From positions 133,408-197,407 of the forward strand of contig CAYGFH010000001.1 of the NCBI GenBank assembly GCA_964349125.1: a stretch of DNA of 64,000 nucleotides, given 5' to 3'. Below the pieces are notes generated by a model that worked only from the letters and a program-made list of their open reading frames with translations, did no database searches and was not told the DNA's origin. The position numbers were made by a program, and so were the translations under genes. Source of the stretch: an uncultured Gammaproteobacteria bacterium (lineage in GTDB: Bacteria; Patescibacteriota; Microgenomatia; UBA10105; UBA927). This document shows, piece by piece, positions 2,323 to 63,849 of the stretch (within the stretch, counting starts at the first letter, position 1; every line of letters begins with the position of its first letter).

Positions 2323-2327
2323 ATTTC

Positions 2328-7701: not shown

Positions 7702-7706
7702 ATGTA

Positions 7707-22868: not shown

Positions 22869-22877
22869 AATACGTCC

Positions 22878-26203: not shown

Positions 26204-26349
26204 ATTCTTACATCACGCTTCTCGCTTGGAATTAGTCCTCCTACGCCGCTTTGAATAGAATAGTACCGCGGCATAAAGAGCCATACGCTCAACGCACAGC
26301 ATTGCCGTTTACGCACGAGCTCTTAAATAGTATCATATTACTATTACTC
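26204..26349. promoter_or_regulatory. Divergent intergenic region between the minus-strand gene block and the plus-strand island. It presumably carries promoters in both directions.
   Basis: A 146-bp non-coding gap if the YfhO-like gene starts at ATG 26350. AT-rich -10-like hexamers are present (TAGTAT, TTAAAT) but there is no clean consensus. Confidence 0.3.
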
Positions 26350-33832: not shown

Positions 33833-33855
33833 TCTATCCGTATAGATTTAAGAAT

Positions 33856-33925
33856 TTAGGTTTGTAATTTGAGTTTTGGAACTTGGGATTTGTGATTTGG
33901 GATTTGTGATTTGGGATTTGTGATT
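33856..33925. repeat. Tandem 14-bp repeat (TGGGATTTGTGATT). There are three perfect copies at 33884-33925, preceded by two degenerate copies.
   Basis: Read directly from the sequence. It lies in the 102-bp gap between convergent genes ending at 33832 and 33935. Confidence 0.7.
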
Positions 33926-33934
33926 TGCTCTCTG

Positions 33935-35605
33935 TTACTTCCTCGGGGATTCAAATACAAAAATTGATGGCTTTCCGCTTAGGAAATGGAATGATCTGAT
34001 AAAGTCCTTCCGGTTGGAAAAATCATCAGCATTCCCAACCAATAGCTGGTTAGGAACAGCGAAGTCCCTTGCCTGATCTATCTGGCGAAATTCGTACGTA
34101 TCATACCGGTTATCCTCCGATTCCCAACTGCCGGACTTAGTCCCGCCCTGGGAGAGGTACGCTGCGGGATCATATTTGGTATAGTACAGCATGAATGCGT
34201 GCGGCCACTGCAGTCTGGTGGACACGATAATTTTGTCGTAGTTCCCTTTCACCCGCTCCAGATACTCTGCCATTTCGCTGTAGGAATACTGCCAGTGTTG
34301 TGACCTCTCAGCAGGAATATGAACTGTATACTGGTGGAAAAACAAAAACCCCTCCGCACATATCCATATACCCATTGCCGTAAGTAGGAGGAATCTCCCT
34401 ATCGTCATGGCGTTCTTTTTAATCTGATCGATAAAACCGAAAAGTCCGAGTGCCCCAAGCAGTGATAATCCGATAGAAAGACCTACTGTCCTGATGGCGT
34501 GCGGGGAATCCCATGTGACGGATGCCGGAATTGGCGGAATCAGAATCCAGGCGAGTACCGCCGCAATCACGGCTTTTCTCTGGGATACAAACAGCAGGTA
34601 GAATCCAAATATCAGACAGGGGATGAGCCAGAAATACGCCAACCCGCTGTAAATGGAGCTCTCCTGTTTGTGTCCGATCCCGAACAGCAAAAAGTCTGTG
34701 GAAAAGTGAGACAGGTATGCACGCGTGATAATCCGTGATGCGGGATGCACTATCCAGTCATGGATTACGCGTCTGGGTTTATCTATGCCAAGCGTTCCGT
34801 CATACGCCATTTCCCTTTCATTAATCTCCAACAGTTCACTTTTGTGTGAAAAGAAATTTGTCCCCGTAAACCGGATCTGGGCAGTGGGAGACGTGAGATC
34901 ACGAACCAAAAATACAGCAACGAATATCCCGGGCAGCAGGACATACCAAAGTTTTTTCTCACTCCACAGCTGTTTGGCATAGACGATAAACAGAGTCAGT
35001 CCGACGAGCGGCGCGATCGCGCGGAAGCTTAAATAGGTATATGACGCAACGCCGAAAAGTAATACAGAGAGAGCCAGCTTTCCTCCCTTTCCTGATACGC
35101 CCTTGAGAAACAGAAGCATAGCAAGGACGGTTATACTCATGGCGACATTTGCCTCTGATGCCATGCGGGAGAACATAATGTTCCAAGGCAGTACTGCAGT
35201 AATACCGGCCGCTAACAGACCTAACTCTTTACGCCTGAACAGTTCTGTGGCGAGTGCATACATGAGATAGATGAGAAGAACTCCAAAGAACACGGAAGGC
35301 AGACGGACGGCTGTGTCCGTATACCCGAACAGTTTTATGGATGCCACGGTCATGTACACATAGACCGGCATTTTATAATCATCCAGCGACCGGAAGTAGA
35401 GCGGGAACCGTTCCCCGAATTCATCTTTACCGGTTTTCAGAATCGAGTACGCGTTGTACCCAATGGAGACCTCATCCCAGTTAAGTGATGGCGGGTTTGA
35501 CGAAAACTGATAGACACGAAAAAAAATGCCGACTAACAGGATAAAAACTAGGAGAAAATTTGCCTTAAACAGGCGCATCAGCGATTGTCTGACCAGACGC
35601 TTCAT
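33935..35605 (-). CDS. GT39/GT83-like GT-C glycosyltransferase. Paralog E.
   Basis: NWDEVSIGYNAYSILKTGKDEFGERFP...VRLPSVFFG, and C-terminal HWQYSYSE...MLYYTKYDPAAY. Confidence 0.8.
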   Translation of the reverse strand: MKRLVRQSLMRLFKANFLLVFILLVGIFFRVYQFSSNPPSLNWDEVSIGYNAYSILKTGKDEFGERFPLYFRSLDDYKMPVYVYMTVASIKLFGYTDTAVRLPSVFFGVLLIYLMYALATELFRRKELGLLAAGITAVLPWNIMFSRMASEANVAMSITVLAMLLFLKGVSGKGGKLALSVLLFGVASYTYLSFRAIAPLVGLTLFIVYAKQLWSEKKLWYVLLPGIFVAVFLVRDLTSPTAQIRFTGTNFFSHKSELLEINEREMAYDGTLGIDKPRRVIHDWIVHPASRIITRAYLSHFSTDFLLFGIGHKQESSIYSGLAYFWLIPCLIFGFYLLFVSQRKAVIAAVLAWILIPPIPASVTWDSPHAIRTVGLSIGLSLLGALGLFGFIDQIKKNAMTIGRFLLLTAMGIWICAEGFLFFHQYTVHIPAERSQHWQYSYSEMAEYLERVKGNYDKIIVSTRLQWPHAFMLYYTKYDPAAYLSQGGTKSGSWESEDNRYDTYEFRQIDQARDFAVPNQLLVGNADDFSNRKDFIRSFHFLSGKPSIFVFESPRK

Positions 35606-35612
35606 ATAAAAA

Positions 35613-36539
35613 TTAGTTCTGTATATCTAACTCTGCATCATGCCGCTTCCACATACTCGACTGTACCATTCTCTTTGAGAGAACGGAAGGGAGTCTTGTA
35701 AGGGCGGCTATGTATCCCTGAACCATAAGGGTATCTCCGTGCAAAGCAGCTTGGAGAAGCCGTATCGGTGCCCAGAAACTGTGCGCCACAAGTATGGATA
35801 CATCGGAAACATTTTTCCAGATAAAAATAAACTGGTTGCGGTACACGATCCGCTTCACATCTGTCGGGGTAAATTCCCGCTTAATCTTTCCCTCCTCGTG
35901 GTAGTGGTTCACGATACTCTTGGGCTCAAATACGATGTCCCAGCCGGCTTTCCGTGCACGGTAGGAGAGGTCAATGTCCTCCCAGTAAAACGGATTGTAC
36001 AGCACATCCATCCCGCCAAGCTTGTTCCACATATCCCGTCTGAATGCACCGCTGCCGCCGGACACCCATGCGGTGGTCGTGCCGTCCACTTCCCCTTTGC
36101 TGTGGACAAAAAATCCTTTGGTCCAACGGGCAAGTCCCCGTCCGCGAAGTACCACCCCTGTGGCTTCCGGGCTTTTCTCCAGACAGCCGACTGCAAATAT
36201 ATTTGGGTTATCAAAATGGGTAAGCAGAGGCTTTAAAAATCCTTTTTCAGGCTCGACATCGGTGTTTAAAAGTATCACGACATCCCCTGTTGCAGAGCGT
36301 ACCCCTGCATTTACATTTGCCGCAAATCCTTCGCGCTTGGAGCGCTCAACCACCACAACTTTGGGGAAGTTTTTGTGCAGGTAATCGACAGACCCGTCCG
36401 TGGACATATCATCGGCAACGACTATTTCGGCACCGGTTGCATTATCTATGACCTTTTGCAGGTGCTTTTCCATGAGGTACACACCGTTCCAGTTGGGAAT
36501 TACTATAGAGACGGAGTGGGATGCTTTTGCCTTCTTCAT
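35613..36539 (-). CDS. Family 2 glycosyltransferase.
   Basis: VSIVIPNWNGVYL...VVADDMSTDGS...LLNTDV. I prefer the ATG at 36539 (MKKAKASHS...). The ORF track extends to 36638. Confidence 0.8.
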   Translation of the reverse strand: MKKAKASHSVSIVIPNWNGVYLMEKHLQKVIDNATGAEIVVADDMSTDGSVDYLHKNFPKVVVVERSKREGFAANVNAGVRSATGDVVILLNTDVEPEKGFLKPLLTHFDNPNIFAVGCLEKSPEATGVVLRGRGLARWTKGFFVHSKGEVDGTTTAWVSGGSGAFRRDMWNKLGGMDVLYNPFYWEDIDLSYRARKAGWDIVFEPKSIVNHYHEEGKIKREFTPTDVKRIVYRNQFIFIWKNVSDVSILVAHSFWAPIRLLQAALHGDTLMVQGYIAALTRLPSVLSKRMVQSSMWKRHDAELDIQN

Positions 36540-36631
36540 ATCCACATTATACCCCACATATATGCGTATGAGGCAAGAGAGGCAAAAGGGACCCGCACAC
36601 CGCAAACGAAAATACGGTAAAATACGGGAGT
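36540..36631. promoter_or_regulatory. Divergent intergenic region. It contains TAAAAT followed by GGGAG immediately before the ATG at 36632.
   Basis: The sequence is ggtaaaatacgggagtATG. The SD-to-start spacing is very short, at 1 nt. Confidence 0.3.
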
Positions 36632-37966
36632 ATGGCAAAGAAAAAAATCATAAAGACCACCGATGAAGCCGAGAGTACACCCTCAAAACCTGTGAACGTT
36701 TGGCCAATAGTCACCCTTGCCCTGATATTTCTCGCACACCTGTTTTTCCGTTTCTACAACCTCGAGAACTGGGCATCGTTTAACTGGGATCAGGTGGACA
36801 ACGCGTGGGCAGCTGCAAAAATTCTGATCGCTCATAAATATCCGCTTGTCGGCATGGTCGCCAAACAAAACAGCGGCATGTACATAGGCCCACTGTACTA
36901 TTATCTCGTGGCATTTGTGTACAAACTTACCGATATGCACCCGATTGCGGCACCGATTCTTGCCGCGATGACATCTCTGTTTAGTTTCGCAGTAGTATAT
37001 TCAGTCACAAGAAAGCTTTTTTCCCCATGGGTCGGTGTGTGGGCAACGTTTATCTATACATTTTCCGCATATATTACAGGGGCCGAGAGGTCGCAGTGGC
37101 CTGTGAATTTCCTTCCCGCTTTTTCCCTGCTCATCTTATACAACCTGTATAAACTTTTGACCGATCATCCGAAATACAGTATCTACCTTGCAATTGTCAT
37201 GGGATTATTTTTCCATATCCACTTTACCGCAATTTTTTATCCGATGATTGTTCTTTGTACGCTGCCGTTTTTGAAATGGGATCGCGTACATCTGAAGTAT
37301 TACGCATTTTCCGTTGTAATATTTCTCCTCTTTTTTATCCCCCAGATTGTGTACTATACGCAGGCATCACATGCAAAAAGTATTAATAACTATTCCGGGT
37401 ATTTCAATACGTACTATCACGGATTCCACGCCCGACGGGTTCTACAACTCGCTCCGGATGCATTTATAAAATTCCAATCGATCATGCAAGTGCCGTATGA
37501 AAGATTAAAGCTTTTAATGTTTTTATATGTGCCAATGTTTTTTCTCGCACTCTTATGGAAGGATAAATCAAAAAAAACTTTGCTTCTGTGCTTTGTGACG
37601 GCACTCTGGTTTGTGATACCGTGGTTTGTATTTTCGACTTACAAAGGTGAACTCACTGATTATTACTTTTCATCTACCCTTTATGTGGCAATTATGATCC
37701 TTGCATGGCTAAGCCATGCACTTTGGATGAGAAAAATGATCGTTTTGCGTGTAGCACTACTGGCATTTTGGGGGTACTTTGCAGTGGCAAACTATTATCA
37801 GTTTATGGGAAGCGATAACAAACAGGAATTCCGTAAAAATTTCATCAGCGCTCTGGAAGCTGCCGACGGCGATCGCTACTATAACTATGCTGACGGCGAT
37901 CCGAAGTCATACATGTACTACTACCACATGTATGAACTCAAAAAAGAATTGCCGTATAAGCTTTAA
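36632..37966 (+). CDS. ArnT/PMT_2-like polytopic membrane glycosyltransferase candidate (DxGRD subfamily).
   Basis: NWDQVDNAWAAAKILIAHKYPLVGMVAKQNSGMYIGPLYYYLVAFVYKL. Paralogous to 21279 and 55703. Confidence 0.7.
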   Translation: MAKKKIIKTTDEAESTPSKPVNVWPIVTLALIFLAHLFFRFYNLENWASFNWDQVDNAWAAAKILIAHKYPLVGMVAKQNSGMYIGPLYYYLVAFVYKLTDMHPIAAPILAAMTSLFSFAVVYSVTRKLFSPWVGVWATFIYTFSAYITGAERSQWPVNFLPAFSLLILYNLYKLLTDHPKYSIYLAIVMGLFFHIHFTAIFYPMIVLCTLPFLKWDRVHLKYYAFSVVIFLLFFIPQIVYYTQASHAKSINNYSGYFNTYYHGFHARRVLQLAPDAFIKFQSIMQVPYERLKLLMFLYVPMFFLALLWKDKSKKTLLLCFVTALWFVIPWFVFSTYKGELTDYYFSSTLYVAIMILAWLSHALWMRKMIVLRVALLAFWGYFAVANYYQFMGSDNKQEFRKNFISALEAADGDRYYNYADGDPKSYMYYYHMYELKKELPYKL

Positions 37967-38442
37967 AATCGTTCAATTCCTTTATGCCCCACAGGCGTTA
38001 ATACTTTTTCTCCACGCAGCTCAATATCATTTTGACTAACATACCCCAATTTCATTTGCTCTACTATCCATTCTTTATCATATCGAATATCATTTGTTGA
38101 AAAGTAAAAATCAACACCCAAAGCTAATACATGTTTAGTTCCATGTGGATATTCGCCACTTCCAATGCCTATACGAATTAATGGATTGATTTCATGCAAT
38201 TTTGCGACAATTATATCCGATAGGCCATCCCCTTCTCCTGAGTATTGTCCAAGATCCTTATGAAGGATCACAGATTCGATTTGTCTAATAGCAGGAGAAT
38301 CAATAAATCTCATCGCTGTCGAAAACAACGTAAAATATTTTGTTGCAATTCCCATATGAGTGAAGGATTCTGAGAATGCTTCTGCGAAACCTCCACCAAC
38401 GTCATGAATAAATAATGCTTTTGGATTTTTAACGTTGCCCAT
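37963..38442 (-). CDS. Hypothetical soluble protein, 159 aa.
   Basis: Intact ORF of a size typical of a small enzyme. Motifs HDVGGGFAEAF and IGIGSGEYPHGTKH are not assignable by eye. Its stop overlaps the stop of the convergent gene (TTAA). Confidence 0.5.
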   Translation of the reverse strand: MGNVKNPKALFIHDVGGGFAEAFSESFTHMGIATKYFTLFSTAMRFIDSPAIRQIESVILHKDLGQYSGEGDGLSDIIVAKLHEINPLIRIGIGSGEYPHGTKHVLALGVDFYFSTNDIRYDKEWIVEQMKLGYVSQNDIELRGEKVLTPVGHKGIERF

Positions 38443-38585
38443 ACTTAAATTTGCAAACGAAGCGCAACATATTCAGAGTATAATCTCTATGTTACACAAA
38501 TTATACCTTCACCATCAATACAAAAATAATGTCAAACAAGCATTGCCTTAAGCTATAAATTACAGTGTCATCCCAACATGAGTGA

Positions 38586-40814
38586 TTACTTATAGGCGAT
38601 TGAAACCTTATTATCTCCCAATTTAAGATAAATTCCCATAAACAAATAATTCACCCTGATTATTGGCGCCTGTTTTCCATCAACAGTTGCTTTCCAGTTT
38701 GGGTTATACATATTCCCAATTACCAAGAGTCTTGGTTGGGTGGTCTTTACGTTGATCGTCATTTTGCCCTGTTCGTAGTGAGTGATTGTTGCTGACTCGC
38801 CTGCCTGCAATCCTGTATTAAGTACATTCACCGGCGTTTCCACGACCGCATCGAATGCATAGTAGAAATCAGGACTGTACAGCGCGTTTATAACTTCCTG
38901 TTCCGTTTTCTTGTATATCACGCGGGAGACCAGATACGCGCGTGGCATCAGAGACATATTCTCGTACACGTGTGTCTGTCCTTCAGTAAGCACTTTTCTA
39001 AACCGCGGATTTGGTATTTCATTAAACGTCAGAATATACTTAACATTCAGTAAATCAAATAATGGCGAAGATGTATTTTTCGGCACTATGATGCGTTCGT
39101 ATCCGTACGGTGGATTTATATTCGGCTCTCCCCGTTCCATGGCTGCAATAAATTTGTCATACCGCAGTGAGTGTATCGGATCATAGCCGTTTATTGATTC
39201 TAGGCCGTAATAGGTATTCGTATCTGGGGGCAGAATCCTGTCATCCAGTGTCATGGTGCGAAACGGTTTTGGCGCACTTTCCATGTATGAGATTACCTTC
39301 GTCCTCGGGAAAAAGAGAGACTGTTCAGTGAACGGCGTAAACTTCCACCCGAACCTGAAAAGATCAAATACAGATAGTGCCATAAACAGTATGACAATAC
39401 CCATATGCAATTGTCTTTTTTTGAAGTACCTATATGCTGCAAACAGCAACGCGGTGCTCACGAAGACCACGGATGGCACGTATAAATTGCGTTTGAGTAC
39501 CTGGGCCTGTTCGATGGTTATACGTATAGCACTATGATCAACAAATGCTACCCAGCACGCCGCCAACAGTGCCCCCACGAGTATAACGGGTGTGTAGTTT
39601 TTTTTGTGTGAAGTCAGTACCGAGGAAACACCATAAGTGGCCAATACACTGAGCGCCAGATTTACTATCACCAAAAGTCTCGTCGGCTGCAGACTGGATA
39701 GAAACGGCAGGTGCAAAACATACGGCAACGCGCTTATCGGTGACTGCACGGCAAATACGAGTGATGCCACAGCAAGCATCCCCCAGAATTTGGTCTGTTT
39801 ACCGATGCCAAGCAGTGCAAATACGAGACCCGCTATCCCCATATACCCCACCATTTCACCGTAGTTCCATGTCCCCCAGTAATTAAGGGTCGCGGGATTT
39901 CCGAAAAAGTCAGGGGCGACAAACTGCACCAGATGCACGAAGGGGATAAAAAATCCCTCTGCATGCCACGCACTCCCTGATGACAGCCTGGCAGTCTGCG
40001 GCAACCACTGCAGTATTGCGAGAAGTTGGTACGAAACGATAGCAACCGCCCCCAAGACAACGGCGGTGAGCCATGTAAGTGCATGCGGTTTTCTGTGGGC
40101 ATTCAAAAGCCACAGGGCATACAACACCACCGTGACTGCACTGTAGAAAAACATCTGGAGATGTCCCGCAAAAAATGAGAATGACAACGCGATTATCCCG
40201 AGACAAAACCACTTCACAGATTTTTTAGTATCATGCAGTATCAGTTCATGTACGGAGGCCAGGGCAAGAGGCGTCCACATCCAAGAGGACAGTAGTGTCC
40301 CCCATGTCAGCCATGCGATGGATGATCCCGAAAACGCGAAAATGATTGATCCAAAGAGAGATGGGATTGCCCCCATGGAGATGATCCGCATAAAGATATA
40401 GAAAAATATTCCTGCAAGAAGCGTTTGGGAAATAATAAGAGCACTCCACGCGAGAGGAAACGGCAAAACAAAAAATAAAATATTCAGCGGGTACAACGCA
40501 CCCGATTGGATGTTAGCAAGAAGAGGCGTCCCCGAAAAGGACGTAGCGTCCCATGTGGGAAGTGTGCCGTTTTTCATGGCATCAATCGTCTGTTTGCGCC
40601 ATGGAATCTGCTGACGGATGGGATCGGTAATCAGAAAATTTTTATACGGTATGCCGTTGGGATACTCGGCTGCCTTCAAATCACGGTAGGGATGATAGAG
40701 CCCCACTAGTGTATCGGAAGGTACGGGAAGCAGTCCCGACACAAGCGTTTTATGGAAAAAAATTCCAACCAGAAGGACAAATACGACTATAGCCAGAACA
40801 TCTGATCGTTTCAT
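38586..40814 (-). CDS. YfhO-family polytopic membrane glycosyltransferase (GT-C). Homolog 2.
   Basis: LYHPYRDLKAAE...IPWRKQTIDAMKNGTLPTWDATSFSGTPLLANIQSGALYPL. Confidence 0.8.
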   Translation of the reverse strand: MKRSDVLAIVVFVLLVGIFFHKTLVSGLLPVPSDTLVGLYHPYRDLKAAEYPNGIPYKNFLITDPIRQQIPWRKQTIDAMKNGTLPTWDATSFSGTPLLANIQSGALYPLNILFFVLPFPLAWSALIISQTLLAGIFFYIFMRIISMGAIPSLFGSIIFAFSGSSIAWLTWGTLLSSWMWTPLALASVHELILHDTKKSVKWFCLGIIALSFSFFAGHLQMFFYSAVTVVLYALWLLNAHRKPHALTWLTAVVLGAVAIVSYQLLAILQWLPQTARLSSGSAWHAEGFFIPFVHLVQFVAPDFFGNPATLNYWGTWNYGEMVGYMGIAGLVFALLGIGKQTKFWGMLAVASLVFAVQSPISALPYVLHLPFLSSLQPTRLLVIVNLALSVLATYGVSSVLTSHKKNYTPVILVGALLAACWVAFVDHSAIRITIEQAQVLKRNLYVPSVVFVSTALLFAAYRYFKKRQLHMGIVILFMALSVFDLFRFGWKFTPFTEQSLFFPRTKVISYMESAPKPFRTMTLDDRILPPDTNTYYGLESINGYDPIHSLRYDKFIAAMERGEPNINPPYGYERIIVPKNTSSPLFDLLNVKYILTFNEIPNPRFRKVLTEGQTHVYENMSLMPRAYLVSRVIYKKTEQEVINALYSPDFYYAFDAVVETPVNVLNTGLQAGESATITHYEQGKMTINVKTTQPRLLVIGNMYNPNWKATVDGKQAPIIRVNYLFMGIYLKLGDNKVSIAYK

Positions 40815-41875
40815 ATACGAGGTTCTCCCGTGACTGTTGTAATCAGTGTATCAATTTTTCCGTTAAACACCGGCATGGAAAACCTGACAGCAGAGGATAT
40901 CGCGCTGCCGGAAAGTTTGGTGGACAGTTGCGGATCTGCCAATACATCGGCGGTCTTTGACACCAATTCATCAATATTTTTCCACAGATAACCGTTTTGG
41001 CCTTCCGTGACGATCTCCGGCAATCCGCCGCCGTCAAATACCACCGGCACGGCTCCTGCGCTCATAGCCTCCACGGGGGCGATGCCAAAATGCTCCATAT
41101 TCTCCGGCCTGGTTTCACCGTATCCGGCGGCATGCCAGTACACTGATGCCTGCTCATAGAGCGGTATAAGTGTTTCGTACGGACAATTTGGATAAAACGT
41201 GACAGGCAGTCCCGTGGCTCTCTGGCGGAGTTTGACAAGCGCATCATCATCACTGTGTAACACCCCACCTGCGAGTGCAAGCTGGTATCCGCTGTACCGC
41301 TTGATACGAAGCAGCCGCTCAAATGCGGATATCAGTACATCAAATTTCTTCGCATTATAGAGGCCGCCAAACCGGCCGACAGAAAGAATCAGTTTTAATT
41401 TCCCGACGACCGATCCCTGTATCGGATTTACAGGTGGATACACCACCTGTCCCGGTATACTATGGAGCACGGGATCTACATTTGCCTTGGTGAATTCTGA
41501 ATTATATACCACGGCGTTAATGCGCCATTTTTTCCAGAATGGCAATTCCATATGCGAAAATGGAACCTGCATATGGAGTATGTTGTGTTTTGCGAAGCTT
41601 ACAGGGATACTCCCGTCCGTTAAAAAAAATATCAGATCATACTGGCGACTCACCTGCAGTTTTTGAAATATAGATCCCCGCGCAAATACGTTGGGAACAA
41701 CAGAAACCGCAGGTAATTCCAGCTTGAACCGCTCCTGGGCTTTGTGCACTATATCCGGGTTATCCCAAAACACGTCCACAGAGTGGAGAACAGACAGATG
41801 AGAAGCGATCGCCAACATGTAGCGCTCTCCCCCGCCAAGCGAATCCAGATACGGACTAACGATGCCGATTTTCAT
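40811..41875 (-). CDS. Family 4 glycosyltransferase (GT-B).
   Basis: Start at MKIGIVSPYLDSLGGGERYML. C-terminal ENMEHFGIAPVEAMSAGAVPVVFDGGG. The first 20 nt overlap the end of the upstream YfhO gene. Confidence 0.8.
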   Translation of the reverse strand: MKIGIVSPYLDSLGGGERYMLAIASHLSVLHSVDVFWDNPDIVHKAQERFKLELPAVSVVPNVFARGSIFQKLQVSRQYDLIFFLTDGSIPVSFAKHNILHMQVPFSHMELPFWKKWRINAVVYNSEFTKANVDPVLHSIPGQVVYPPVNPIQGSVVGKLKLILSVGRFGGLYNAKKFDVLISAFERLLRIKRYSGYQLALAGGVLHSDDDALVKLRQRATGLPVTFYPNCPYETLIPLYEQASVYWHAAGYGETRPENMEHFGIAPVEAMSAGAVPVVFDGGGLPEIVTEGQNGYLWKNIDELVSKTADVLADPQLSTKLSGSAISSAVRFSMPVFNGKIDTLITTVTGEPRI

Positions 41876-44189
41876 AGAAAAATTTTGAGACTGTAACCAG
41901 TATAAGCGAAACCACCGCTCCCATGGCAATCCAAATTCCGAGTAAATACCCACCCGGTTTATAGGAAAATACCACTGTATGATCGCCTGCCGGGACTGCC
42001 ACAGCCCGGAAATCATAGTTTGCCCGCATCACAGGAAGCGGTTTTTTCCCATCGAGCATTGCTATCCATCCTGTATCATACACATCCGACAAAAACAGCA
42101 GTTTCGGGGTCTGAGAGCTGGTCTGTATTTCCACTCGGTTGGGTTTGTATGAACTGATTGTTGCTGAGCCGCTGCCCTCTTGTGGCATTTCTGAGGGTTC
42201 GCTCTCCAAAATAACAGTGTTTCGTAGATCCACAGCGCCTGAGTACAGTGTTTGTAGTATCTCTGCATCCGAAGATTTCACCACGTAGTTTCCCGCCAAA
42301 AAAGCCCGAGGGTAACTATCCGTATACTCATAGATCCAGTAGTCATCATCCGCGTACACCTGTTTCATCGTTCCGGCCTCTTCATACTCCCAGTACGGAA
42401 ATGCCCAAATCGCACGCATGTCACTTTTCCTGTGGTAGATATACCGCACACCCAAGAGCTTCAATAGTGTATCGCGGTGTACCCCGTGCTTATCAAATTG
42501 CACGACAGAGCGTTCAGGAGGGTTGGGATTCCCTTTAGATGCAGCCTGAATTAGCTCTCCATACCGCTTCTGATACATGGCATCATACCCCTCTACCAGC
42601 TGCAGTCCAAATGTGGTTGCCACTTCATTACCGATGTTTCCGAATACCCTGTTTTCCCCCGCATATTTTTGTAGAAACCCGAGCGAGGATACGGAGGGAT
42701 ACATAAATTTCCTGTCCTCAAACGGCATCCATTTAGAGGCAAATCTGTGCAAATCAAACAGAGAAAGAAGTAAAAGTATACATATGGCAAAGCCTCTGAT
42801 GAGATCGGATTTAACCAGTCCCACAAAAAGTAGAACAACTGTGACTCCTGCTATTCCCGTGGGCAGATACATATTCCGTTTTGCTATAGCAATCTTTTCG
42901 GCATCAAATGGCCTAATGAGGAACAACACAGCCCAAACAGCAGCAATCAAAACGAGTACCCCAGCGGAAAACGAAACCAATGATTTACTGTCAGCTTTTT
43001 TCCATACGTGGAGCAATTTGGAAAATCCGACAGCAGACAGGTACGCCAGTGAAAAACTGGTAAGTATCAGTATCCGTGACGCCGCACTTGTGGAAATTGC
43101 CGGAAGCCTGAGGAAAAACAGCAAATCACTCAGCGGAGACTGATACGCAAGCAGTAGTGTTGAGACTGCCACTCCCGCGAAAAACAGTTGCCGTTTCGTT
43201 TTTTTGCAGACAAAAGAAAATATCGCAAGAAGAAGTGGGATCACACCAATATATGATGCCCATTCGGCATAGTGTCCGAACCAGTCATTTCGTGTCACTG
43301 GATTTCCGTAAAAATCAGGGGAAAGGATAGTAATTATGTATTGCCACGGAATCACCTCACCTTTTATAAAGCTTGCGCTTCTCACGGATTCTGTGTACGC
43401 ATGAAATGTTAACAACAGCTGGGGTGCAGCAAAACCCAGAGCAAATGCTGTGTGAAACAGCAGAAATATTCCGCGAGCTATCCTTTTATGCCAATACGAG
43501 AGTGCAATGATATACAGGACACTTATCGACAATACGTACAGGCTTATCTGAAAATGTCCCGACATAAACGAAAACGCGAGCATAATCGCATAGAGCGAAG
43601 GGGCAAATTGCAGTTTCTTCGTAATATACGATGATATGAAAAATAACGACCATGGCAGCATTGCTGATGCCCATGAGAGCGTACCGTACGCCATCCAACC
43701 GACCATAAACCCGCAAAACATAAACGCCACGGATCCTATGAATGCGCCTATCCGTCCTGAGATTTTCTGCTCACTCAAAAACAGGTACATACCGATTCCT
43801 GCAACAAGAGGCTGGAGCAAAATCAGGAGGCTCCACGCATCGATAAACGGAAATATGAAAAATAGAAAAGTAAGCGGGGAAAAAATCGCTGTCTGGTAAT
43901 TGGCGGCATGGCCTGTGCCTGCAAAACTGTATGGATTCCAAAGCGGAGCTTCGGCGGATTTCCATGTATCCACCGTCAGCTTCTTCCACGGGTAGATCTG
44001 CGAAATAGTATCGGGCATTGCATTATTTTTTACCGCAGTGCCATACGTCGCATTCCACGGAGGAAATGAGGTCACCAGATACGTGGAGGGAAACGGTACC
44101 AGACCCTTTATAAAATACGGCGAAGAAAAAACAAACCAGAGTAACAGAATTCCCACAATCGGCCAAAATTTTAGAAGCTCCCTTTTCAT
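41856..44189 (-). CDS. YfhO-family polytopic membrane glycosyltransferase (GT-C). Homolog 3.
   Basis: ISQIYPWKKLTVDTWKSAEAPLWNPYSFAGTGHAANYQTAIFSPL. Confidence 0.8.
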   Translation of the reverse strand: MKRELLKFWPIVGILLLWFVFSSPYFIKGLVPFPSTYLVTSFPPWNATYGTAVKNNAMPDTISQIYPWKKLTVDTWKSAEAPLWNPYSFAGTGHAANYQTAIFSPLTFLFFIFPFIDAWSLLILLQPLVAGIGMYLFLSEQKISGRIGAFIGSVAFMFCGFMVGWMAYGTLSWASAMLPWSLFFISSYITKKLQFAPSLYAIMLAFSFMSGHFQISLYVLSISVLYIIALSYWHKRIARGIFLLFHTAFALGFAAPQLLLTFHAYTESVRSASFIKGEVIPWQYIITILSPDFYGNPVTRNDWFGHYAEWASYIGVIPLLLAIFSFVCKKTKRQLFFAGVAVSTLLLAYQSPLSDLLFFLRLPAISTSAASRILILTSFSLAYLSAVGFSKLLHVWKKADSKSLVSFSAGVLVLIAAVWAVLFLIRPFDAEKIAIAKRNMYLPTGIAGVTVVLLFVGLVKSDLIRGFAICILLLLSLFDLHRFASKWMPFEDRKFMYPSVSSLGFLQKYAGENRVFGNIGNEVATTFGLQLVEGYDAMYQKRYGELIQAASKGNPNPPERSVVQFDKHGVHRDTLLKLLGVRYIYHRKSDMRAIWAFPYWEYEEAGTMKQVYADDDYWIYEYTDSYPRAFLAGNYVVKSSDAEILQTLYSGAVDLRNTVILESEPSEMPQEGSGSATISSYKPNRVEIQTSSQTPKLLFLSDVYDTGWIAMLDGKKPLPVMRANYDFRAVAVPAGDHTVVFSYKPGGYLLGIWIAMGAVVSLILVTVSKFFYENRHR

Positions 44190-44200
44190 AATTCGTAAAT

Positions 44201-44968
44201 CTATATTTGCTTATTACTACTCTCCCCCTGCTGTAATTCCCAAAGCTTGGCATAGGTGGTAAACATGCTAAATGACTGGAAGATGCTTTCAATCAGACCG
44301 ACCGTTCCCATTTTCCAACCGCCTTCCCGTACATACGAGGAAAAAAATCCGGTGGCCATGACCCGCAACAATCTCCACTCCACAATCCTCGGGTGGTGAG
44401 CGTCAAAACGTAATTTTGCTTCAATTTCTGACCATTCGTTCGTTTTCTCCGTCATCTCATGGAGAGATCGGTGAGTATCGTGCACGAGATGATTGTACAG
44501 CACTCCGGTTTCTCCTTCTATGTGGGCATGCTCGTGTATATCTCCGGTCCAGCGAATCAGCGATTCCCGGTGGATCAGACGGACCATCCCGTCGTGTGTC
44601 GGCCAGAGATATCCCAAATAATAATTGTCACGAAGTATCCGGTAGCCTTTTACGGACGATTCTCCCGCTGTCACTTCGGAAATTTCAGACGCCAATTTTG
44701 TGCTGACAAATTCATCGGCATCTATATACAGCAGCCAGTCTGCATTTGAAGATTTGGCACCGAGGTTTCGCAGTTCTGCAAATTTTTTTGTATCGGATTT
44801 GAGCACACGTGCGCCCGCTTTTCTGGCGACTTGGGCTGTCCTGTCCGTTGAACCGTTATCTACCACGAATATTTTTCGGGCAAATGAAAGCCGATTTATG
44901 CAGGTCGCCAGCCGAGGAGACTCGTTTTTGGCAATAATGATGGCATCAATTGATTTTTTTTGGTTCAT
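44201..44968 (-). CDS. Family 2 glycosyltransferase.
   Basis: IDAIIIAKNESPRL...VVDNGSTDRT...LYIDADE. Start uncertain (44968 or 45010). Confidence 0.75.
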   Translation of the reverse strand: MNQKKSIDAIIIAKNESPRLATCINRLSFARKIFVVDNGSTDRTAQVARKAGARVLKSDTKKFAELRNLGAKSSNADWLLYIDADEFVSTKLASEISEVTAGESSVKGYRILRDNYYLGYLWPTHDGMVRLIHRESLIRWTGDIHEHAHIEGETGVLYNHLVHDTHRSLHEMTEKTNEWSEIEAKLRFDAHHPRIVEWRLLRVMATGFFSSYVREGGWKMGTVGLIESIFQSFSMFTTYAKLWELQQGESSNKQI

Positions 44969-45866
44969 ACTGCTTACCGAATTTACCGAAAAGTGCGTCC
45001 GCGACCGCACGTCTTCTCACCGGCGATTGTCCAAAGAAAAATCTGACTGCCTCCCTGACAAGGGCAAATTTTGTCCGCAACGAGGCATACCTGAATCCCA
45101 ACAGCAGCCGGTTTCTGGTGAAGTAGTACTCATGAAGTGGATTTCCCGGTTTACCGGAAGATCCCGCATTCACATGCCACACTATTGAACTTGGCACATA
45201 CATGGTTTTATATCCGGCACGCTGAATACGGAGGCTCCAATCCAGATCTTCCAGATATAAATAGTACGCATCATCAAGTTTTCCGACTGATCTGACTAAG
45301 TCAGATCTGACGATAAACGAGCAGCCGGTTATAAACGGTGTCTCACAGGACTCATCAAACTGACCGTGGTCCACCTCATCGACGCCTCGGTGAGATGCAT
45401 AAATATTGTCCCAATCCATAAGCCCGCCTGCGTACCATATGACCTTGCCGCGTTCACTGTGCGTATACCGATCGGCATGGTATTCATGACCCGGGGCAAA
45501 GTAAATTTTACTTCCGCAGGCCCCGACTGCCGTATCCTTAAACGCTCCCACAAATGAGAGGACATTTTTGTCCACGAGCGTATCGTTATTGAGCATCCAG
45601 ATATAATCCGCGTTCTGTCTGAGGGCATAGTCCATCCCTACATTATTGCCGCCGGTGAATCCCAGATTTTTCCCTGTTTCAATCACATGAACACCGGGGA
45701 ATTTCTTTTTGATCTGAATAACGGAATCATTTGTGGAACCGTTATCCACTACCACGACTGTTAATTTTGCGAACGATTCATTCACCTGTTTGAGCGACTC
45801 CAGACAGACAAGCGTATCGGCGACTCCGTTCCAATTGACGATGATTGCGTAGACAGATTGTTTCAT
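44946..45866 (-). CDS. Family 2 glycosyltransferase.
   Basis: VYAIIVNWNGVADT...VVVDNGSTNDS...MLNNDT. Confidence 0.8.
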   Translation of the reverse strand: MKQSVYAIIVNWNGVADTLVCLESLKQVNESFAKLTVVVVDNGSTNDSVIQIKKKFPGVHVIETGKNLGFTGGNNVGMDYALRQNADYIWMLNNDTLVDKNVLSFVGAFKDTAVGACGSKIYFAPGHEYHADRYTHSERGKVIWYAGGLMDWDNIYASHRGVDEVDHGQFDESCETPFITGCSFIVRSDLVRSVGKLDDAYYLYLEDLDWSLRIQRAGYKTMYVPSSIVWHVNAGSSGKPGNPLHEYYFTRNRLLLGFRYASLRTKFALVREAVRFFFGQSPVRRRAVADALFGKFGKQYEPKKIN

Positions 45867-45871
45867 ACCTG

Positions 45872-46774
45872 TTATCTGATAAGCTTACGAAGAACACGCT
45901 TATTTAGTTTCCCGACGACGCTCTTTGATTCATCGATTCCCATAGACAGCTGCCAATAGCGCATTTCTTTTGCATTATGTTTTAATTCGGCTGCAATCTC
46001 ATCAGCCGATATGTCACGGTGTGTAAACCCGTTCATTTCCCAATATTTAGCAAATACTGCAAATGAATAAAATGCCTGAAAAAGAGCAAGGACCAGTCCG
46101 TGCAGTCCGTCTCTGTACCCGTGCTGTGCAAAATATATTTTCAAAAAATCAGAGACAGGAAACCTGATGGCATCAAACCAGGACAGTACGTACTGCGCCT
46201 CTTTCAGAGCTATCGCTTCGCTCGTCGATGCCCGGTCAATTTTTGTCAGATACTGGTGTATCGACTCATAATTATAGTGATCATACGGGGTCTTCAGGGT
46301 AGATACTCCGCCATCCACCGCTATGTATTCATGTATGTGTGCGCAGGGAAATGCCCCTTTGCCCGTTCGGAACAGGCGCAGTTGCTTATCAGGCCACCAT
46401 AACCCGTGCTGTATCCATTTGCCGAATGAAAAGTTTTTCCGTGCTATCCAGTACCCGTTTTCTGTTGGGTTCGATTCGATTGTGGTGACTATTTCCTTGG
46501 CAAGTTCAGGTGGAACAACCTCATCGGCATCCAGATTTAGAATCCAATCCCCCGTCGCCTTGGAAAACCCGAAGTTCTTGTTGGTGTTTAACATCAGCAG
46601 GTTTTTCCGCCTGTATACATTTTTGGTAAATTTCCTCGCAACATTCGCCGTATCGTCCAGTGATTCATTGTCAACCACAATCACTTCATCGGCAAACTCC
46701 ACAGACTCCAGGCATCTGCCGATTGTTCCCTCTTCGTTGTACGCGGATATAACCACAGACAGTTTCTGTTTCAT
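45872..46774 (-). CDS. Family 2 glycosyltransferase.
   Basis: LSVVISAYNEEGTI...VVDNESLDDT...LNLDADE. Confidence 0.8.
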   Translation of the reverse strand: MKQKLSVVISAYNEEGTIGRCLESVEFADEVIVVDNESLDDTANVARKFTKNVYRRKNLLMLNTNKNFGFSKATGDWILNLDADEVVPPELAKEIVTTIESNPTENGYWIARKNFSFGKWIQHGLWWPDKQLRLFRTGKGAFPCAHIHEYIAVDGGVSTLKTPYDHYNYESIHQYLTKIDRASTSEAIALKEAQYVLSWFDAIRFPVSDFLKIYFAQHGYRDGLHGLVLALFQAFYSFAVFAKYWEMNGFTHRDISADEIAAELKHNAKEMRYWQLSMGIDESKSVVGKLNKRVLRKLIR

Positions 46775-46776
46775 AA

Positions 46777-48240
46777 TCAGTGCCTCGCGACATTAACAAT
46801 TCCGGCTATTCTTTTCTTCTCAAAGTACCATACTATCGCTCCATATAGTATAACACCGAATATGGCCACCGAGGCCAGTTGGGTCGTATTATACGGCGCG
46901 GAACCCCTTGCCAGCTGATACCATGCTATCTGGACAAACGCAGCGACAAACGGCCATTTTACCTGGGACAAAAACGAGAAGTGGGCAATTTCCTTTGCCA
47001 TGCGAATCACAACAACGATGGCGAGGGACAACACGAGAAGCGTAATGGCAAACCCGTTAAACCCAAAAAGCGGGATAAATATCAGAGTCAGTATCCAAGT
47101 GCCCGCGGTCCAAAAGATCATGAGGAACATTGTTAATTTTATTTTCCCAACTGCATTGAGCGCATTGGTAAGGGGCGTAGAGAAGCCCGCAATAAGCGCG
47201 GAAATAACGAATATGTAAAATGACAACAGAGCGGGCTCCCATTTACCGTACTTTGGAATCAGTCTGACAGCAGGCTCCACAAAATACAGAAGTCCTACCG
47301 AAATCGGCAACATAGCCACTGACAGGCCGAATATCGTTTTTTCTATCGCATTACCCAGATGCTCCTTGGAATGCTGCAATCTGGAAAATGCAGGGAACGT
47401 GACGCGGATCACACTATCCATGATGAGGCGGATAGGCACCTCCGCCCATTTTTTTGCCCAGCCGATATATCCGATCTGTTCAAATGTCAGAATTTTCCCG
47501 AGAAACACTGTCATTAAATCATCCTTCACGAGAGCCAGCAGCGAATTCATCTGAAACGGTATGCCAAATTTCAATAACTTTTGGGCGACGGGTTTGGAAA
47601 TTCCAAACCTGATTTTCCAGGGGGAAATGATGTACATGAGGACAAACCCGACAACTGCCCGCGTCATGACAGCCCATGTGAAACTCGTTAACCCGTACCC
47701 TTTCCATGCCATAATGACGGCGACCGCATAAAACCCTATTGTTTCGGCAATTTGCGGTATGACCAGTTTGTTAAATTGCAGTTCCCGCTCAAGCAGTACG
47801 GATGGAATGGTCTTGAGCGAGGATATAAAAAATGAAAACACTAACGCCTGAAACAGCGCCACACCTGACTGATCGAGCGAGTAAAAAGCGGCGATGTATG
47901 TGGAAGATAAAAACGCTATAAGACTGACCGGGAATACCAATGCCTGTTGTATGGTAAATGTGGTTACCAAATCCTCGTCGGTAAGTTTTTCCTTCTTTTG
48001 AATCAGTGCGGCGGCCAGTCCGACGTCAGAGAAGTATGATAGAAACGATATTATTGCGGATACCACATAAAACACGCCAAACACCGAAGGGCTTAAAAAG
48101 ATGGTCAGCAGGAATGTGGATCCAAATGCGACGAGTTGCAGTAAAAATGTTCTGGAAGTCAGTGCTATAATTCCGATCAGTGATCGTTTTTTTATGGACT
48201 GTATATCTGTTTCTTCCATAGATACCTCAGAGTGTCGCAC
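46777..48240 (-). CDS. Wzx-like oligosaccharide flippase (MOP/PST superfamily). Second copy.
   Basis: 487 aa with about 12 or more TM helices. The N-terminus (SLIGIIALTSRTFLLQLVAFGSTFLLTIFLSPSVFGVFYV...AALIQ) is typical of the polysaccharide biosynthesis protein family. The start may be 48219. Confidence 0.75.
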   Translation of the reverse strand: MRHSEVSMEETDIQSIKKRSLIGIIALTSRTFLLQLVAFGSTFLLTIFLSPSVFGVFYVVSAIISFLSYFSDVGLAAALIQKKEKLTDEDLVTTFTIQQALVFPVSLIAFLSSTYIAAFYSLDQSGVALFQALVFSFFISSLKTIPSVLLERELQFNKLVIPQIAETIGFYAVAVIMAWKGYGLTSFTWAVMTRAVVGFVLMYIISPWKIRFGISKPVAQKLLKFGIPFQMNSLLALVKDDLMTVFLGKILTFEQIGYIGWAKKWAEVPIRLIMDSVIRVTFPAFSRLQHSKEHLGNAIEKTIFGLSVAMLPISVGLLYFVEPAVRLIPKYGKWEPALLSFYIFVISALIAGFSTPLTNALNAVGKIKLTMFLMIFWTAGTWILTLIFIPLFGFNGFAITLLVLSLAIVVVIRMAKEIAHFSFLSQVKWPFVAAFVQIAWYQLARGSAPYNTTQLASVAIFGVILYGAIVWYFEKKRIAGIVNVARH

Positions 48241-48961
48241 GCTTCCATGGCCGCTGCCAGAATAACCTCAGTAATCCCTCAATATCCCCCTGTGCAGTTT
48301 TTACAACCCGCACAGTTGAACCGGGATTATCTATCCATGTGACGTGTTCCTCGTATATCCGGAACCCCAGTTTTTCAGCAATGATTAACAGTTCACTGTC
48401 AAAGAACCATTCATCATCCTTCACAAGCGGCAGTATTTTTTTTGCGGCATCATCGCGAATCGCTTTAAATCCGCACTGGGCATCGGAAAACTGTACCCAA
48501 AAAATACTCTTGATCATCAGTATGTACGCTTTTGACGTTATGGTGCGAAGTAAGCTTCTCCCGTAGACTCGGGATCCCTGGGAATTTCGTGAACCGATCG
48601 CGATGTCATATCCGCGGATAAGGGAACGTACAAGTCCGGGAAGGTGTTTCAAGTCCGTGGACAAATCTATATCCATATAGCAGTGGATATCCGCCGGTGT
48701 TTGTAACCATGCCGCCTTTACCGCACGTCCGCGTCCTTTTTGTTTCAGGTGTAGTACGGATACTTCCTTATATTTTTTTGAAAGCTTTTGCGCAGCTTTC
48801 AATGTGCCATCCGTCGATGCGTTATCAGCGATGGTGATGCCCCAGGAAAAATCCGTAAGATCACTCTTGAGAAAACGGATCAGCGTTTCTGTATGATCTG
48901 CCAATTCTTCCTCTTCGTTATACACCGGAAGAACGATATTAAGTTTTGTTTTTTTGTCCAT
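48227..48961 (-). CDS. Family 2 glycosyltransferase. Likely a polyprenol-phosphate sugar synthase (DPM1/GtrB-like).
   Basis: LNIVLPVYNEEEEL...ITIADNASTDGT...MDIDLSTD. 244 aa. Confidence 0.8.
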   Translation of the reverse strand: MDKKTKLNIVLPVYNEEEELADHTETLIRFLKSDLTDFSWGITIADNASTDGTLKAAQKLSKKYKEVSVLHLKQKGRGRAVKAAWLQTPADIHCYMDIDLSTDLKHLPGLVRSLIRGYDIAIGSRNSQGSRVYGRSLLRTITSKAYILMIKSIFWVQFSDAQCGFKAIRDDAAKKILPLVKDDEWFFDSELLIIAEKLGFRIYEEHVTWIDNPGSTVRVVKTAQGDIEGLLRLFWQRPWKRATL

Positions 48962-57247: not shown

Positions 57248-57255
57248 AAATCGTA

Positions 57256-59342: not shown

Positions 59343-59366
59343 AACACCTCCAAAAAATCAATACGT

Positions 59367-60665: not shown

Positions 60666-60703
60666 AATAAAAATAGGGACGCATACCTACTCGCTCGGCG
60701 TCC
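60666..60703 (-). terminator. Terminator-like or attenuator hairpin plus U-tract between rfbD and ugd.
   Basis: On the minus strand, GGACGC-(15 nt loop)-GCGTCC is followed by CUAUUUUUAUU directly before the ugd ATG. The large loop lowers confidence. Confidence 0.25.
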
Positions 60704-60737
60704 AAGCATTATAGTATCATAATTTATATTTTTCTGC

Positions 60738-62617: not shown

Positions 62618-62619
62618 AG

Positions 62620-63830: not shown

Positions 63831-63849
63831 AACGTAACCTCCTCTTTCT

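Follow-up and report, generated by a model that had tools for sequence, protein, structure and literature searches.

YfhO-type GT-C glycosyltransferases in a conserved, GT-C-rich glycan island of a Microgenomates bacterium

Three-component glycosylation systems of Firmicutes, namely CsbB-GtcA-YfhO in Bacillus subtilis and Staphylococcus aureus and Lmo2550-GtcA-Lmo1079 in Listeria monocytogenes, decorate teichoic acids with N-acetylglucosamine (GlcNAc). In these systems a lipid-phosphate sugar is made inside the cell, and a membrane glycosyltransferase (GT) of the GT-C class uses it on the outside. B. subtilis YfhO has 13 transmembrane (TM) helices, the last two of which are separated by a large extracytoplasmic domain (PMC5836110). 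Further precedent comes from GacI/GacJ/GacK/GacL of Streptococcus pyogenes and WpsA/B-G-I-J of Lactococcus lactis, where GT-C enzymes use mono- or oligosaccharides linked to undecaprenyl phosphate (C55-P) and flipped by Wzx (PMC9574508, PMC8035078). Here we analyze a 64-kb stretch of DNA (contig CAYGFH010000001.1; "the window" denotes this whole stretch) that encodes three YfhO homologs, two of which, YfhO1 and YfhO2, flank the GT4 gene GT4y in an operon conserved among other Microgenomates genomes. Judged by its gene families and gene order, the window probably belongs to a glycan island encoding a multi-component transmembrane glycosylation pathway on an enlarged scale, which would make an envelope glycan containing rhamnose, a reading to which we assign a probability of roughly 0.65.

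A previous reading of the sequence alone (the sequence-only reading) had assigned three genes to YfhO-type GT-C enzymes, and Pfam bears this out. Our scan covered open reading frames (ORFs) of at least 150 aa, i.e., 50 of the 51 genes in the window, and gene 2328-3359 was scanned separately. YfhO1 (38586-40814, minus strand, 742 aa), YfhO2 (41856-44189, minus strand, 777 aa) and YfhO3 (26350-28779, plus strand, in an ORF from 26251) score 74.1, 56.5 and 73.6 bits against PF09586, the sole Pfam family matching any of them, at a gathering threshold of 28.5 bits for the whole-protein score. Three scores above a curated threshold in one 64-kb window are therefore not attributable to chance. The ATG of YfhO3 at 26350 is present and aligns with the starts of its paralogs. 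All three are full-length paralogs with BLAST E values of 1e-82 to 1e-89 (YfhO1 and YfhO2 are 31% identical, YfhO3 and either of them 27-28%), and by these sequence identities they are old paralogs. YfhO1 has more than 2000 homologs, some of which are named 'YfhO family protein' in Microgenomates metagenome-assembled genomes (MAGs), and the family membership is already reflected in public annotation. No NCBIfam model matches YfhO1, YfhO2, YfhO3 or the more distant relative at 37-2340 described below, and a PDB sequence search with YfhO1 returned only chance matches to tissue factor and no YfhO structure.

The hallmark motif quoted in the sequence-only reading is visible in each of the three YfhO proteins and reads ..(I/Y)PW(K/R)K....K.G..P.W(N/D)..(S/N)F(S/A)G.....N.Q....(Y/S)PL. 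In an alignment of YfhO1, 23 homologs, YfhO2 and YfhO3, 46 columns are invariant, including D64, K58-N59, W88, N101, Q103, H218, Q220, R276, D302-x-x-G-N-P, R379 and K491. D64 stands in the contexts TDPIRQQIPW, MPDxISQIYPW and FDVIRELYPW, and is kept in all YfhO1, YfhO2 and YfhO3 orthologs recovered from 38 related loci.

In the AlphaFold2 (AF2) model of YfhO1 (pLDDT 88.9, pTM 0.89), a bundle of TM helices precedes a C-terminal domain rich in beta-structure. All 14 of its Foldseek matches in the PDB at E<=1e-3 are GT-C enzymes (AftD, ArnT, STT3, AftA and PglB), and the modelled structure of YfhO1 is a GT-C fold. Hydropathy gives the YfhO set 9-12 N-terminal TM helices and a non-TM region of about 270 aa; YfhO1 has about 12 TM helices and an extracytoplasmic domain (beta-strands 591-741 in the model). 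A last TM helix is present in YfhO2 (residues 749-767) and in YfhO3, while the YfhO1 clade is without it.

The gene between the YfhO pair, GT4y (40811-41875, minus strand), encodes a soluble GT-B enzyme of family GT4 with 354 aa (Pfam Glycos_transf_1, 82 bits), for which the PDB offers only weak generic GT4 matches. As the sequence-only reading had noted, it overlaps both neighbors: its start, the ATG at 41875 (MKIGIVSPYL...), gives a 20-bp overlap with YfhO2, whose stop lies at 41856, and its stop shares the ATGA at 40814-40811 with the start of YfhO1, a 4-bp overlap. These overlaps are consistent with translational coupling of GT4y with both YfhO genes. Upstream lie three cytoplasmic GT2 genes (44201-45010, 44946-45866 and 45872-46774, minus strand, Pfam GT2), which separate YfhO2 from a Wzx gene. 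The conserved operon surrounds the YfhO pair with five ordinary cytoplasmic GTs; the window as a whole has 12 ordinary GT2/GT4 genes.

Conservation of this operon was assessed in 38 loci from other genomes, each at most 22 kb long and centred on a YfhO1 ortholog. The core order is PTPS-GT2s-Wzx-GT2-GT2-GT2-YfhO2-GT4-YfhO1-GT2-(GT2s)-PMT2, where GT2s denotes a small soluble GT2. A GT4 gene lies directly upstream of YfhO1 in every locus with upstream sequence (35/35), with a junction mostly between -31 and +5 bp, and YfhO2 precedes this GT4y-YfhO1 pair in 23 of the 35 loci, being absent from the other 12. Wzx is found upstream of YfhO1 in 26/38 loci, and 2-9 GT-C-like genes occur per locus. Three more genomes (L044-L046), reached through the GT2-GtrA fusion described below, have the order CAP-rmlA-rmlC-rmlB-rmlD-UGDH-SDR-[GT2-GtrA]-PMT_2-GT2s-MptA_B-PMT_2-(~510 aa)-PTPS_related, where UGDH is UDP-glucose dehydrogenase and SDR a short-chain dehydrogenase/reductase; this is the order of the window from 63887 down to 48939. 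Since the minus-strand order from rmlA to YfhO1 recurs across Microgenomates, it is conserved and not an accident of this genome.

YfhO homologs at 40-85% identity and the syntenic loci come from MAGs of the Microgenomates group (Gottesman-, Levy-, Roizman- and Woesebacteria). The host is therefore a bacterium of the Candidate Phyla Radiation (CPR)/Patescibacteria and not a Firmicute, and its Microgenomates genome is roughly 0.8 Mb. Many records among loci L002-L039 are titled 'uncultured Gammaproteobacteria bacterium', and two Eisenbacteria/Acidiferrales, even though their gene order matches that of Levy-/Roizman-/Woesebacteria; such titles on syntenic MAG records seem to be placeholders or the result of mis-binning. 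Coding sequence makes up 99% of the window, and no non-coding gap is longer than 146 bp. The island begins at rmlA, beyond which housekeeping genes follow, and on the other side it runs on for at least 9 kb past the left edge of the window with further Pfam-less polytopic proteins. Its size is at least 73 kb, about 9% of the genome, and the window covers most of it. The sequence left of the window (L042, 1-6604) encodes proteins of 620 aa (13 TM helices) and 359 aa (6 TM helices) and a third, polytopic one whose length is at least 480 aa. All three lack a Pfam match even at E<=1; additional GT-C enzymes, a polymerase of the Wzy type or a novel function are conceivable for them.

The sequence-only reading had counted three or possibly four YfhO-type genes. 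This count stands, yet the window holds about 21 GT-C-like genes as identified by Pfam, BLAST paralogy and profile comparison, which occupy 35.6 kb or 55.6% of its bases. They comprise three YfhO, five PTPS_related, about ten PMT_2-like, two MptA/B (GT87)-like and one Pfam-less YfhO/AftD-like gene, as against only five candidate lipid-phosphate-sugar synthases (four small soluble GT2 and the fusion). Nine of the GT-C-like genes (PTPS_related, PMT_2-like and YfhO3, assigned by Pfam, hydropathy and BLAST) form a consecutive array on both strands at 19618-35605, which no GT-A or flippase gene interrupts. As the paralogs share only 27-34% identity, recent duplication was rejected as their source. 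The five PTPS_related paralogs are homologous to YfhO in their membrane core, both by BLAST paralogy and by hhalign against the YfhO profile (98.9%, E 1.8e-17). Two of them (48939-50621 and 50618-52174, minus strand, PF10131) stand at the head of the core operon.

Further GT-C genes on the minus strand are two PMT_2 genes downstream of the fusion (55703-57304 and 52215-53729, by Pfam) and an MptA/B-like gene (53787-54974), which carries the precomputed annotation PF26314 MptA_B_family, a mycobacterial alpha-1,6-mannosyltransferase family. The latter follows a small GT2, a placement kept in three other genomes. The genes at 53787-54974 and 17046-18194 (minus strand) are paralogs of about 390 aa each with 8-9 TM helices by hydropathy. 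ORF 37963-38442 (minus strand), which closes the minus-strand operon beyond a gap of 143 bp, encodes a soluble 159-aa protein with no Pfam or NCBIfam match.

The fourth YfhO-type gene, suspected at the window start, is a distant relative of YfhO at the level of profile-profile comparison. ORF 37-2340 (minus strand, 767 aa) has no Pfam match even at E<=1 and thus stays below the PF09586 threshold, but the profile of its family aligns with the YfhO profile in hhalign (98.1%, E 1.2e-13) over 539 columns that reach the C-terminal TM helix. An invariant GGD motif follows directly after TM1. The best Foldseek match of its AF2 model (pLDDT 78) is AftD 6W98 (E 6e-9), followed by other GT-C enzymes. 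The family comprises 5263 representative clusters at E<=1e-3, and 0 of 30 sampled members have an above-cut-off Pfam family covering the GT-C core. Many members are about 1200 aa long with extra domains, and a paralog of ORF 37-2340 lies just outside the window (L042, 2544-4712).

Candidates for the enzymes that supply lipid-phosphate sugars are of two kinds. The small soluble DPM1/GacI-like GT2 of the core operon, which adjoins Wzx (48227-48961, minus strand), was identified by motifs and best matches, and has paralogs at 54940-55701 (minus strand), 13742-14428 and 11702-12493, identified by best matches. The best NCBIfam and PDB matches of these GT2s are polyprenyl-phosphate sugar synthases (AglJ, PgfS, ArnC, dolichyl-phosphate mannose synthase (DPMS) and GtrB, with DPhHx additionally in NCBIfam), and the best PDB matches of the GT2 at 48227-48961 are DPMS (4e-17), ArnC and GtrB. 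The GSR, R..(S/T) and D..GF(K/R) motifs are common to the four small GT2s and the fusion, and the other GT2s of the window are without them. The four had previously been called DPM1/GtrB-like. The DPM1 part of this agrees with their best matches, whereas the GtrB/CsbB architecture does not hold: hydropathy predicts no TM helix in them, apart from one doubtful helix in 54940. As soluble proteins they are closer in type to GacI, WpsA, PpgS or DPM1 than to GtrB/CsbB.

The second kind is a fusion of a GT2 to a GtrA-like 4-TM domain (57256-58371, minus strand), which the sequence-only reading had recognized and which Pfam supports at 95 bits (GT2) and 76 bits (GtrA_DPMS_TM). It aligns end-to-end with the type-III DPMS of Pyrococcus furiosus (PDB 5MLZ, E 4e-42). 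Type-III DPMS in the strict definition are archaeal only and have DADxQHPP, R117, R131, S135, K178, N248, N277 and the gating F338 (PMC12992685). In the alignment to 5MLZ the fusion keeps R117, R131 and S135 and the polar-pocket residues N248 and N277, but its motif is DADLSHDP (Q to S and P to D), and it has V in place of K178 and L in place of the gating F338. At position 341 it has N instead of R, which it shares with most members from outside the Thermococcales. As it misses DADxQHPP, K178 and F338, the fusion is a homolog of the same architecture that falls outside the strict type-III DPMS. The TM domain of the P. furiosus enzyme was proposed to flip dolichyl-phosphate mannose (PMC12992685), and if the same applies here, the fusion, a putative polyprenyl-phosphate hexose synthase, would also flip its own product. 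A PMT_2 GT-C gene follows the fusion in the window and in three further genomes; this conserved position makes PMT_2, and not YfhO, the partner of the fusion. Members of the fusion family are numerous and well conserved among Patescibacteria, with 4777 matches; JGI names the family 'dolichol-phosphate mannosyltransferase'. A stand-alone GtrA was found neither in the window nor within 10 kb of YfhO1 in the 38 loci, where a hidden Markov model of the fusion's GtrA domain finds only the fusion; the rest of the genome lay outside this search.

Both Wzx flippases expected from the sequence-only reading are present. The Wzx/MOP flippase of the core operon (46777-48240, minus strand) scores 179.6 bits against Pfam Polysacc_synt_3, and a second one was identified by Pfam at 12480-13739. 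NCBIfam matches Wzx to a MOP flippase and an O-glycosylation flippase, both below cut-off. Genes for sugar nucleotides head the minus-strand superoperon at 58386-63887, where Pfam identifies rmlA, rmlC, rmlB, rmlD, UDP-glucose dehydrogenase and a GDP-6-deoxyhexose reductase/GMD-like SDR. The SDR (58386-59342, minus strand) is closest to 2PK3, a GDP-6-deoxy-D-lyxo-4-hexulose reductase (E 3e-84), which suggests a GDP-D-rhamnose-type sugar beside the dTDP-L-rhamnose of rmlABCD. An Arn-like interpretation (Ugd-ArnA-ArnC-ArnE/F-ArnT) of the UGDH-SDR-GT2/GtrA-PMT_2 order was rejected, as the SDR is nearest to 2PK3 and GDP-mannose dehydratases and not to UXS/ArnA. At 6610-8372 (minus strand) lie genes for a DesI-like dTDP-4-keto-6-deoxyglucose aminotransferase and an N-acetyltransferase of the NeuD/PglB/VioB family (176 bits, above cut-off), a pair that implies that the glycan contains a 4-acetamido-4,6-dideoxyhexose. 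Among the scanned ORFs of the window, there was no Pfam match to a phosphoglycosyl transferase (PGT), Wzy, WaaL, LCP, ABC exporter, LtaS or TagF.

The class of multi-component transmembrane glycosylation systems (Rismondo, Gillis and Grundling 2021, PMC8035078) combines a GT-A of the polyprenyl-phosphate-sugar type, a GtrA/Wzx flippase and a GT-C. All of these are present and linked in the window, as GT2s-Wzx...YfhO2/YfhO1 and as DPMS-like-PMT_2. The general scheme, in which DPM1-like GT2s load polyprenyl phosphate, Wzx and possibly the TM domain of the fusion flip the product and GT-C enzymes including YfhO use it outside the membrane, is likely or even quite likely. In the pathway we propose, cytoplasmic enzymes would supply dTDP-L-rhamnose, UDP-glucuronic acid (UDP-GlcA), GDP-6-deoxyhexose and the 4-acetamido-4,6-dideoxyhexose, and the five DPM1-like GT2s (four small soluble ones and the fusion) would load sugars on polyprenyl phosphate. 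The twelve ordinary GT2/GT4 enzymes would build a lipid-linked oligosaccharide on the cytoplasmic face, and the two Wzx, possibly together with the TM domain of the fusion, would move lipid-linked sugars outward. There, about 21 GT-C enzymes would assemble and branch the rhamnose-containing envelope glycan from lipid-phosphate donors.

For YfhO2-GT4-YfhO1 itself we prefer, tentatively and at somewhat less than even odds, a scheme modelled on lactococcal Wps. The small GT2 would prime polyprenyl phosphate, the neighboring GT2 and GT4 enzymes would extend it, Wzx would flip the polyprenyl-phosphate-oligosaccharide, and YfhO2 and YfhO1 would polymerise the oligosaccharide and/or transfer it to an acceptor. 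This scheme explains the conserved interleaving of the YfhO genes with cytoplasmic GTs and Wzx, and the lack of PGT and Wzy. A bolder version, which we regard as speculative and rather unlikely, is that Microgenomates build their principal envelope glycan mostly outside the membrane with at least 20 GT-C enzymes and about five polyprenyl-phosphate-sugar synthases, YfhO2-GT4-YfhO1 being a polymerase and ligase acting on Wzx-flipped polyprenyl-phosphate-oligosaccharide and the fusion both making and flipping a glycolipid. If true, about 9% of a 0.8-Mb genome would encode a bacterial counterpart of ALG/OST assembly in the lumen of the endoplasmic reticulum or of mycobacterial arabinomannan assembly, and YfhO would have a polymerase/ligase activity never shown for its family.

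Several points weigh against the proposed pathway. What is directly established is to which families the proteins belong, the GT-C fold, the gene order with its conservation, and the missing matches to a stand-alone GtrA, a CsbB-type GT2, PGT, Wzy and WaaL in the window, whereas the enzymatic activities, the donors, the acceptor and the choice between mono- and oligosaccharides are all inferred from sequence. Every YfhO characterised so far transfers just one GlcNAc, taken from C55-P-GlcNAc (PMC5836110, PMC8035078). The scores of the small GT2s fall well short of all NCBIfam equivalog cut-offs, and their lipid-phosphate acceptor is deduced from best matches and motifs. To our knowledge, no YfhO handles oligosaccharides or polymerises them. 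The window has no GacJ/WpsB-like activator, no WpsH/Wzz-like regulator and no rhamnan ABC exporter, and genes for a PGT, Wzy or LCP ligase could lie in another part of the genome, or such enzymes may be among the membrane proteins that have no Pfam match, e.g., the 620-aa protein with 13 TM helices. Operon structure was read from gene spacing only, as the promoter/terminator scan was uninformative: promoter-like sites in 35500-50700 were no commoner than in shuffled sequence, and terminator-like sites were mostly intragenic.

The most serious competitor is stepwise assembly of the mycobacterial type, which is a genuine possibility although we would bet against it. Here, each YfhO or other GT-C enzyme would add single sugars in one linkage from a polyprenyl-phosphate-monosaccharide to a lipoglycan or wall polysaccharide that grows on an anchor supplied by cytoplasmic GT4/GT2 enzymes, so that YfhO would elongate or branch but not transfer en bloc, comparable to PimA/B followed by PimE, MptA/B, Emb and Aft. 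AftD and AftA use polyprenyl-phosphate-sugar donors in stepwise polymer assembly, and they are the structurally closest solved enzymes to YfhO1 and ORF 37-2340, even though the likeness to the AftD fold is a generic GT-C one (TM-score about 0.45). Few donor synthases would serve many GT-C enzymes, as those for decaprenyl-phosphate arabinose (DPA) and polyprenyl-phosphate mannose (PPM) do in mycobacteria. The MptA_B-family genes in the cluster and the nine consecutive GT-C genes without a GT-A between them also fit stepwise assembly, as do the monosaccharide donors of known YfhO proteins (PMC8035078). By itself, however, this model does not account for the arrangement of the two YfhO genes, which alternate with and are probably translationally coupled to a soluble GT4 gene and follow Wzx and three GT2s in a conserved operon. 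The product flipped by Wzx would also still need to be transferred, and no Wzy, WaaL or LCP was seen in the window.

Protein glycosylation is improbable. In this case YfhO and other GT-C enzymes would O- or N-glycosylate surface proteins (S-layer proteins, pilins), as do PMT, PglB/STT3 and TMEM260. Many GT-C proteins of the window match PMT_2 and gene 33935-35605 exceeds the cut-off of PMT (PF02366), but PMT_2 also includes ArnT, GacL, GtlB and CsdB, whose substrates are lipids or polysaccharides (PMC8035078). STT3 and PglB are among the structural matches, one below-cut-off match of Wzx is named for O-glycosylation, and the target is not predictable from homology (Rismondo et al., PMC5836110). 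Nevertheless, no YfhO is known to glycosylate protein, the operon has no candidate gene for an acceptor protein, and about 21 different GT-C enzymes exceed the need of any known protein-glycosylation system.

It is also quite improbable that some YfhO paralogs, especially YfhO2, are inactive, i.e., a non-catalytic partner or scaffold of YfhO1 or a decaying duplicate. This idea draws on D34 (PxPSDTLVGLY), which is invariant in 35/35 YfhO1 orthologs and is also Asp in YfhO3, while the corresponding position of YfhO2 (~34) is T in the window copy and T/S/R/G in about half of the YfhO2 orthologs, and on the absence of YfhO2 from 12 of 35 loci. Against it, the three paralog groups share D64 and about 45 further positions without exception, and the YfhO2 ORF is intact, full-length and kept at 37-66% identity across genomes. 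An acidic residue conserved in the first extracytoplasmic loop is the generic catalytic signature of GT-C enzymes, a role for which D64 and D34 are candidates. Moreover, neither the catalytic Asp nor other catalytic residues of YfhO have been established experimentally (PMC5836110).

CPR/Patescibacteria are a large, mostly uncultured group of bacteria with minimal genomes that live attached to other cells, which makes the cell surface the site of their biology, and their surface chemistry is hardly known. Literature searches combining Patescibacteria/CPR/Microgenomates with YfhO, GT-C, glycosyltransferase or mannosyltransferase found nothing relevant. New in our results are the CPR host and the conserved Wzx/GT4/GT2 context of the YfhO pair, unlike that of the csbB-yfhO operon, which would widen the functions worth testing for the YfhO family. 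Further new elements are that GT-C genes are extremely dense for a minimal genome, that a bacterial type-III-DPMS-like enzyme has a PMT_2 GT-C as its partner, and that a GT-C family without a Pfam model numbers more than 5000 representative clusters. The GT-C count of the island roughly equals that of Mycobacterium tuberculosis. That at least 73 kb of such a small genome is spent on one conserved glycan island implies that its product is central to these cells. The soluble DPM1-like GT2s, the DPMS-like synthase and possible flippase, the coupled GT4-YfhO pair and the Pfam-less GT-C family are clonable targets.

Compared with CsbB-GtcA-YfhO, the three YfhO proteins of the window belong to the same Pfam family, YfhO2 and YfhO3 have the same architecture (TM bundle, large extracytoplasmic C-terminal domain and final TM helix) and the proposed logic is the same, while the YfhO1 clade differs in having no terminal TM helix. 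Two features tested for membership in the Firmicute systems are missing, namely a TM-anchored GT-A encoded with the GT-C and a small stand-alone GtrA, and it is a GT4 that overlaps the YfhO genes. Firmicute-type modules of a CsbB/GtrB-like GT2, a GtrA/GtcA flippase and YfhO, which the sequence-only reading had seen as repeated triads placing single sugars on teichoic acid, are thus very improbable: even though all genetically characterised YfhO proteins act in this way (PMC5836110, PMC8035078) and the window has DPM1-like GT2s and one GtrA-like domain, the host is of another phylum, the window has no CsbB-type GT2 with C-terminal TM helices, no separate GtcA/GtrA and no teichoic-acid synthesis gene, the only GtrA-like domain in the window and the 38 related loci is part of a DPMS-like enzyme with a PMT_2 neighbor at 13 kb distance from the YfhO pair, YfhO1 has GT4, Wzx and several cytoplasmic GT2s as its conserved partners, and about 21 GT-C enzymes stand against five donor synthases.

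The proposed pathway has closer counterparts in other systems. As in GacI/GacJ/GacK/GacL, which provide the GlcNAc side chain of the group A carbohydrate in S. pyogenes, a soluble DPM1-like GT-A lies beside Wzx and a GT-C in a cluster with rml genes. However, the window is without a GacJ-like 3-TM activator (it has no small membrane ORF and is almost entirely coding) and the rhamnan exporter, the GT-C enzymes beside the GT2-Wzx pair are YfhO and PTPS_related rather than PMT_2, and there are many more GT-C genes. With L. lactis Wps (WpsA/B, WpsC-F, the Wzx WpsG, the GT-C polymerase WpsI and the ligase WpsJ), the window shares a GacI-like primer GT2, 4-5 cytoplasmic GTs, Wzx and at least two GT-C enzymes, and neither system has a classical PGT or Wzy. 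This likeness is one of gene content alone, and equivalents of WpsB and WpsH are missing from the window.

The fusion has the same layout as the P. furiosus type-III DPMS (5MLZ/9EP0), a GT-A domain followed by a 4-TM domain, but it is bacterial and its lipid is presumably a bacterial polyprenol. Finally, the mycobacterial and corynebacterial GT-C systems (AftA-D, EmbA-C, MptA/B and PimE, with Ppm1/PpgS making the donors) resemble the window in that many GT-C enzymes are fed by few polyprenyl-phosphate-sugar synthases. AftD is the best structural match of both modelled window proteins, and MptA_B-family genes and PpgS-like soluble GT2s are present. There is no sequence orthology beyond family or clan, and the sugars differ, those predicted for the window being rhamnose, GlcA and 6-deoxyhexoses. 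The window host has a genome about 5 times smaller, with a comparable number of GT-C enzymes in a single locus.

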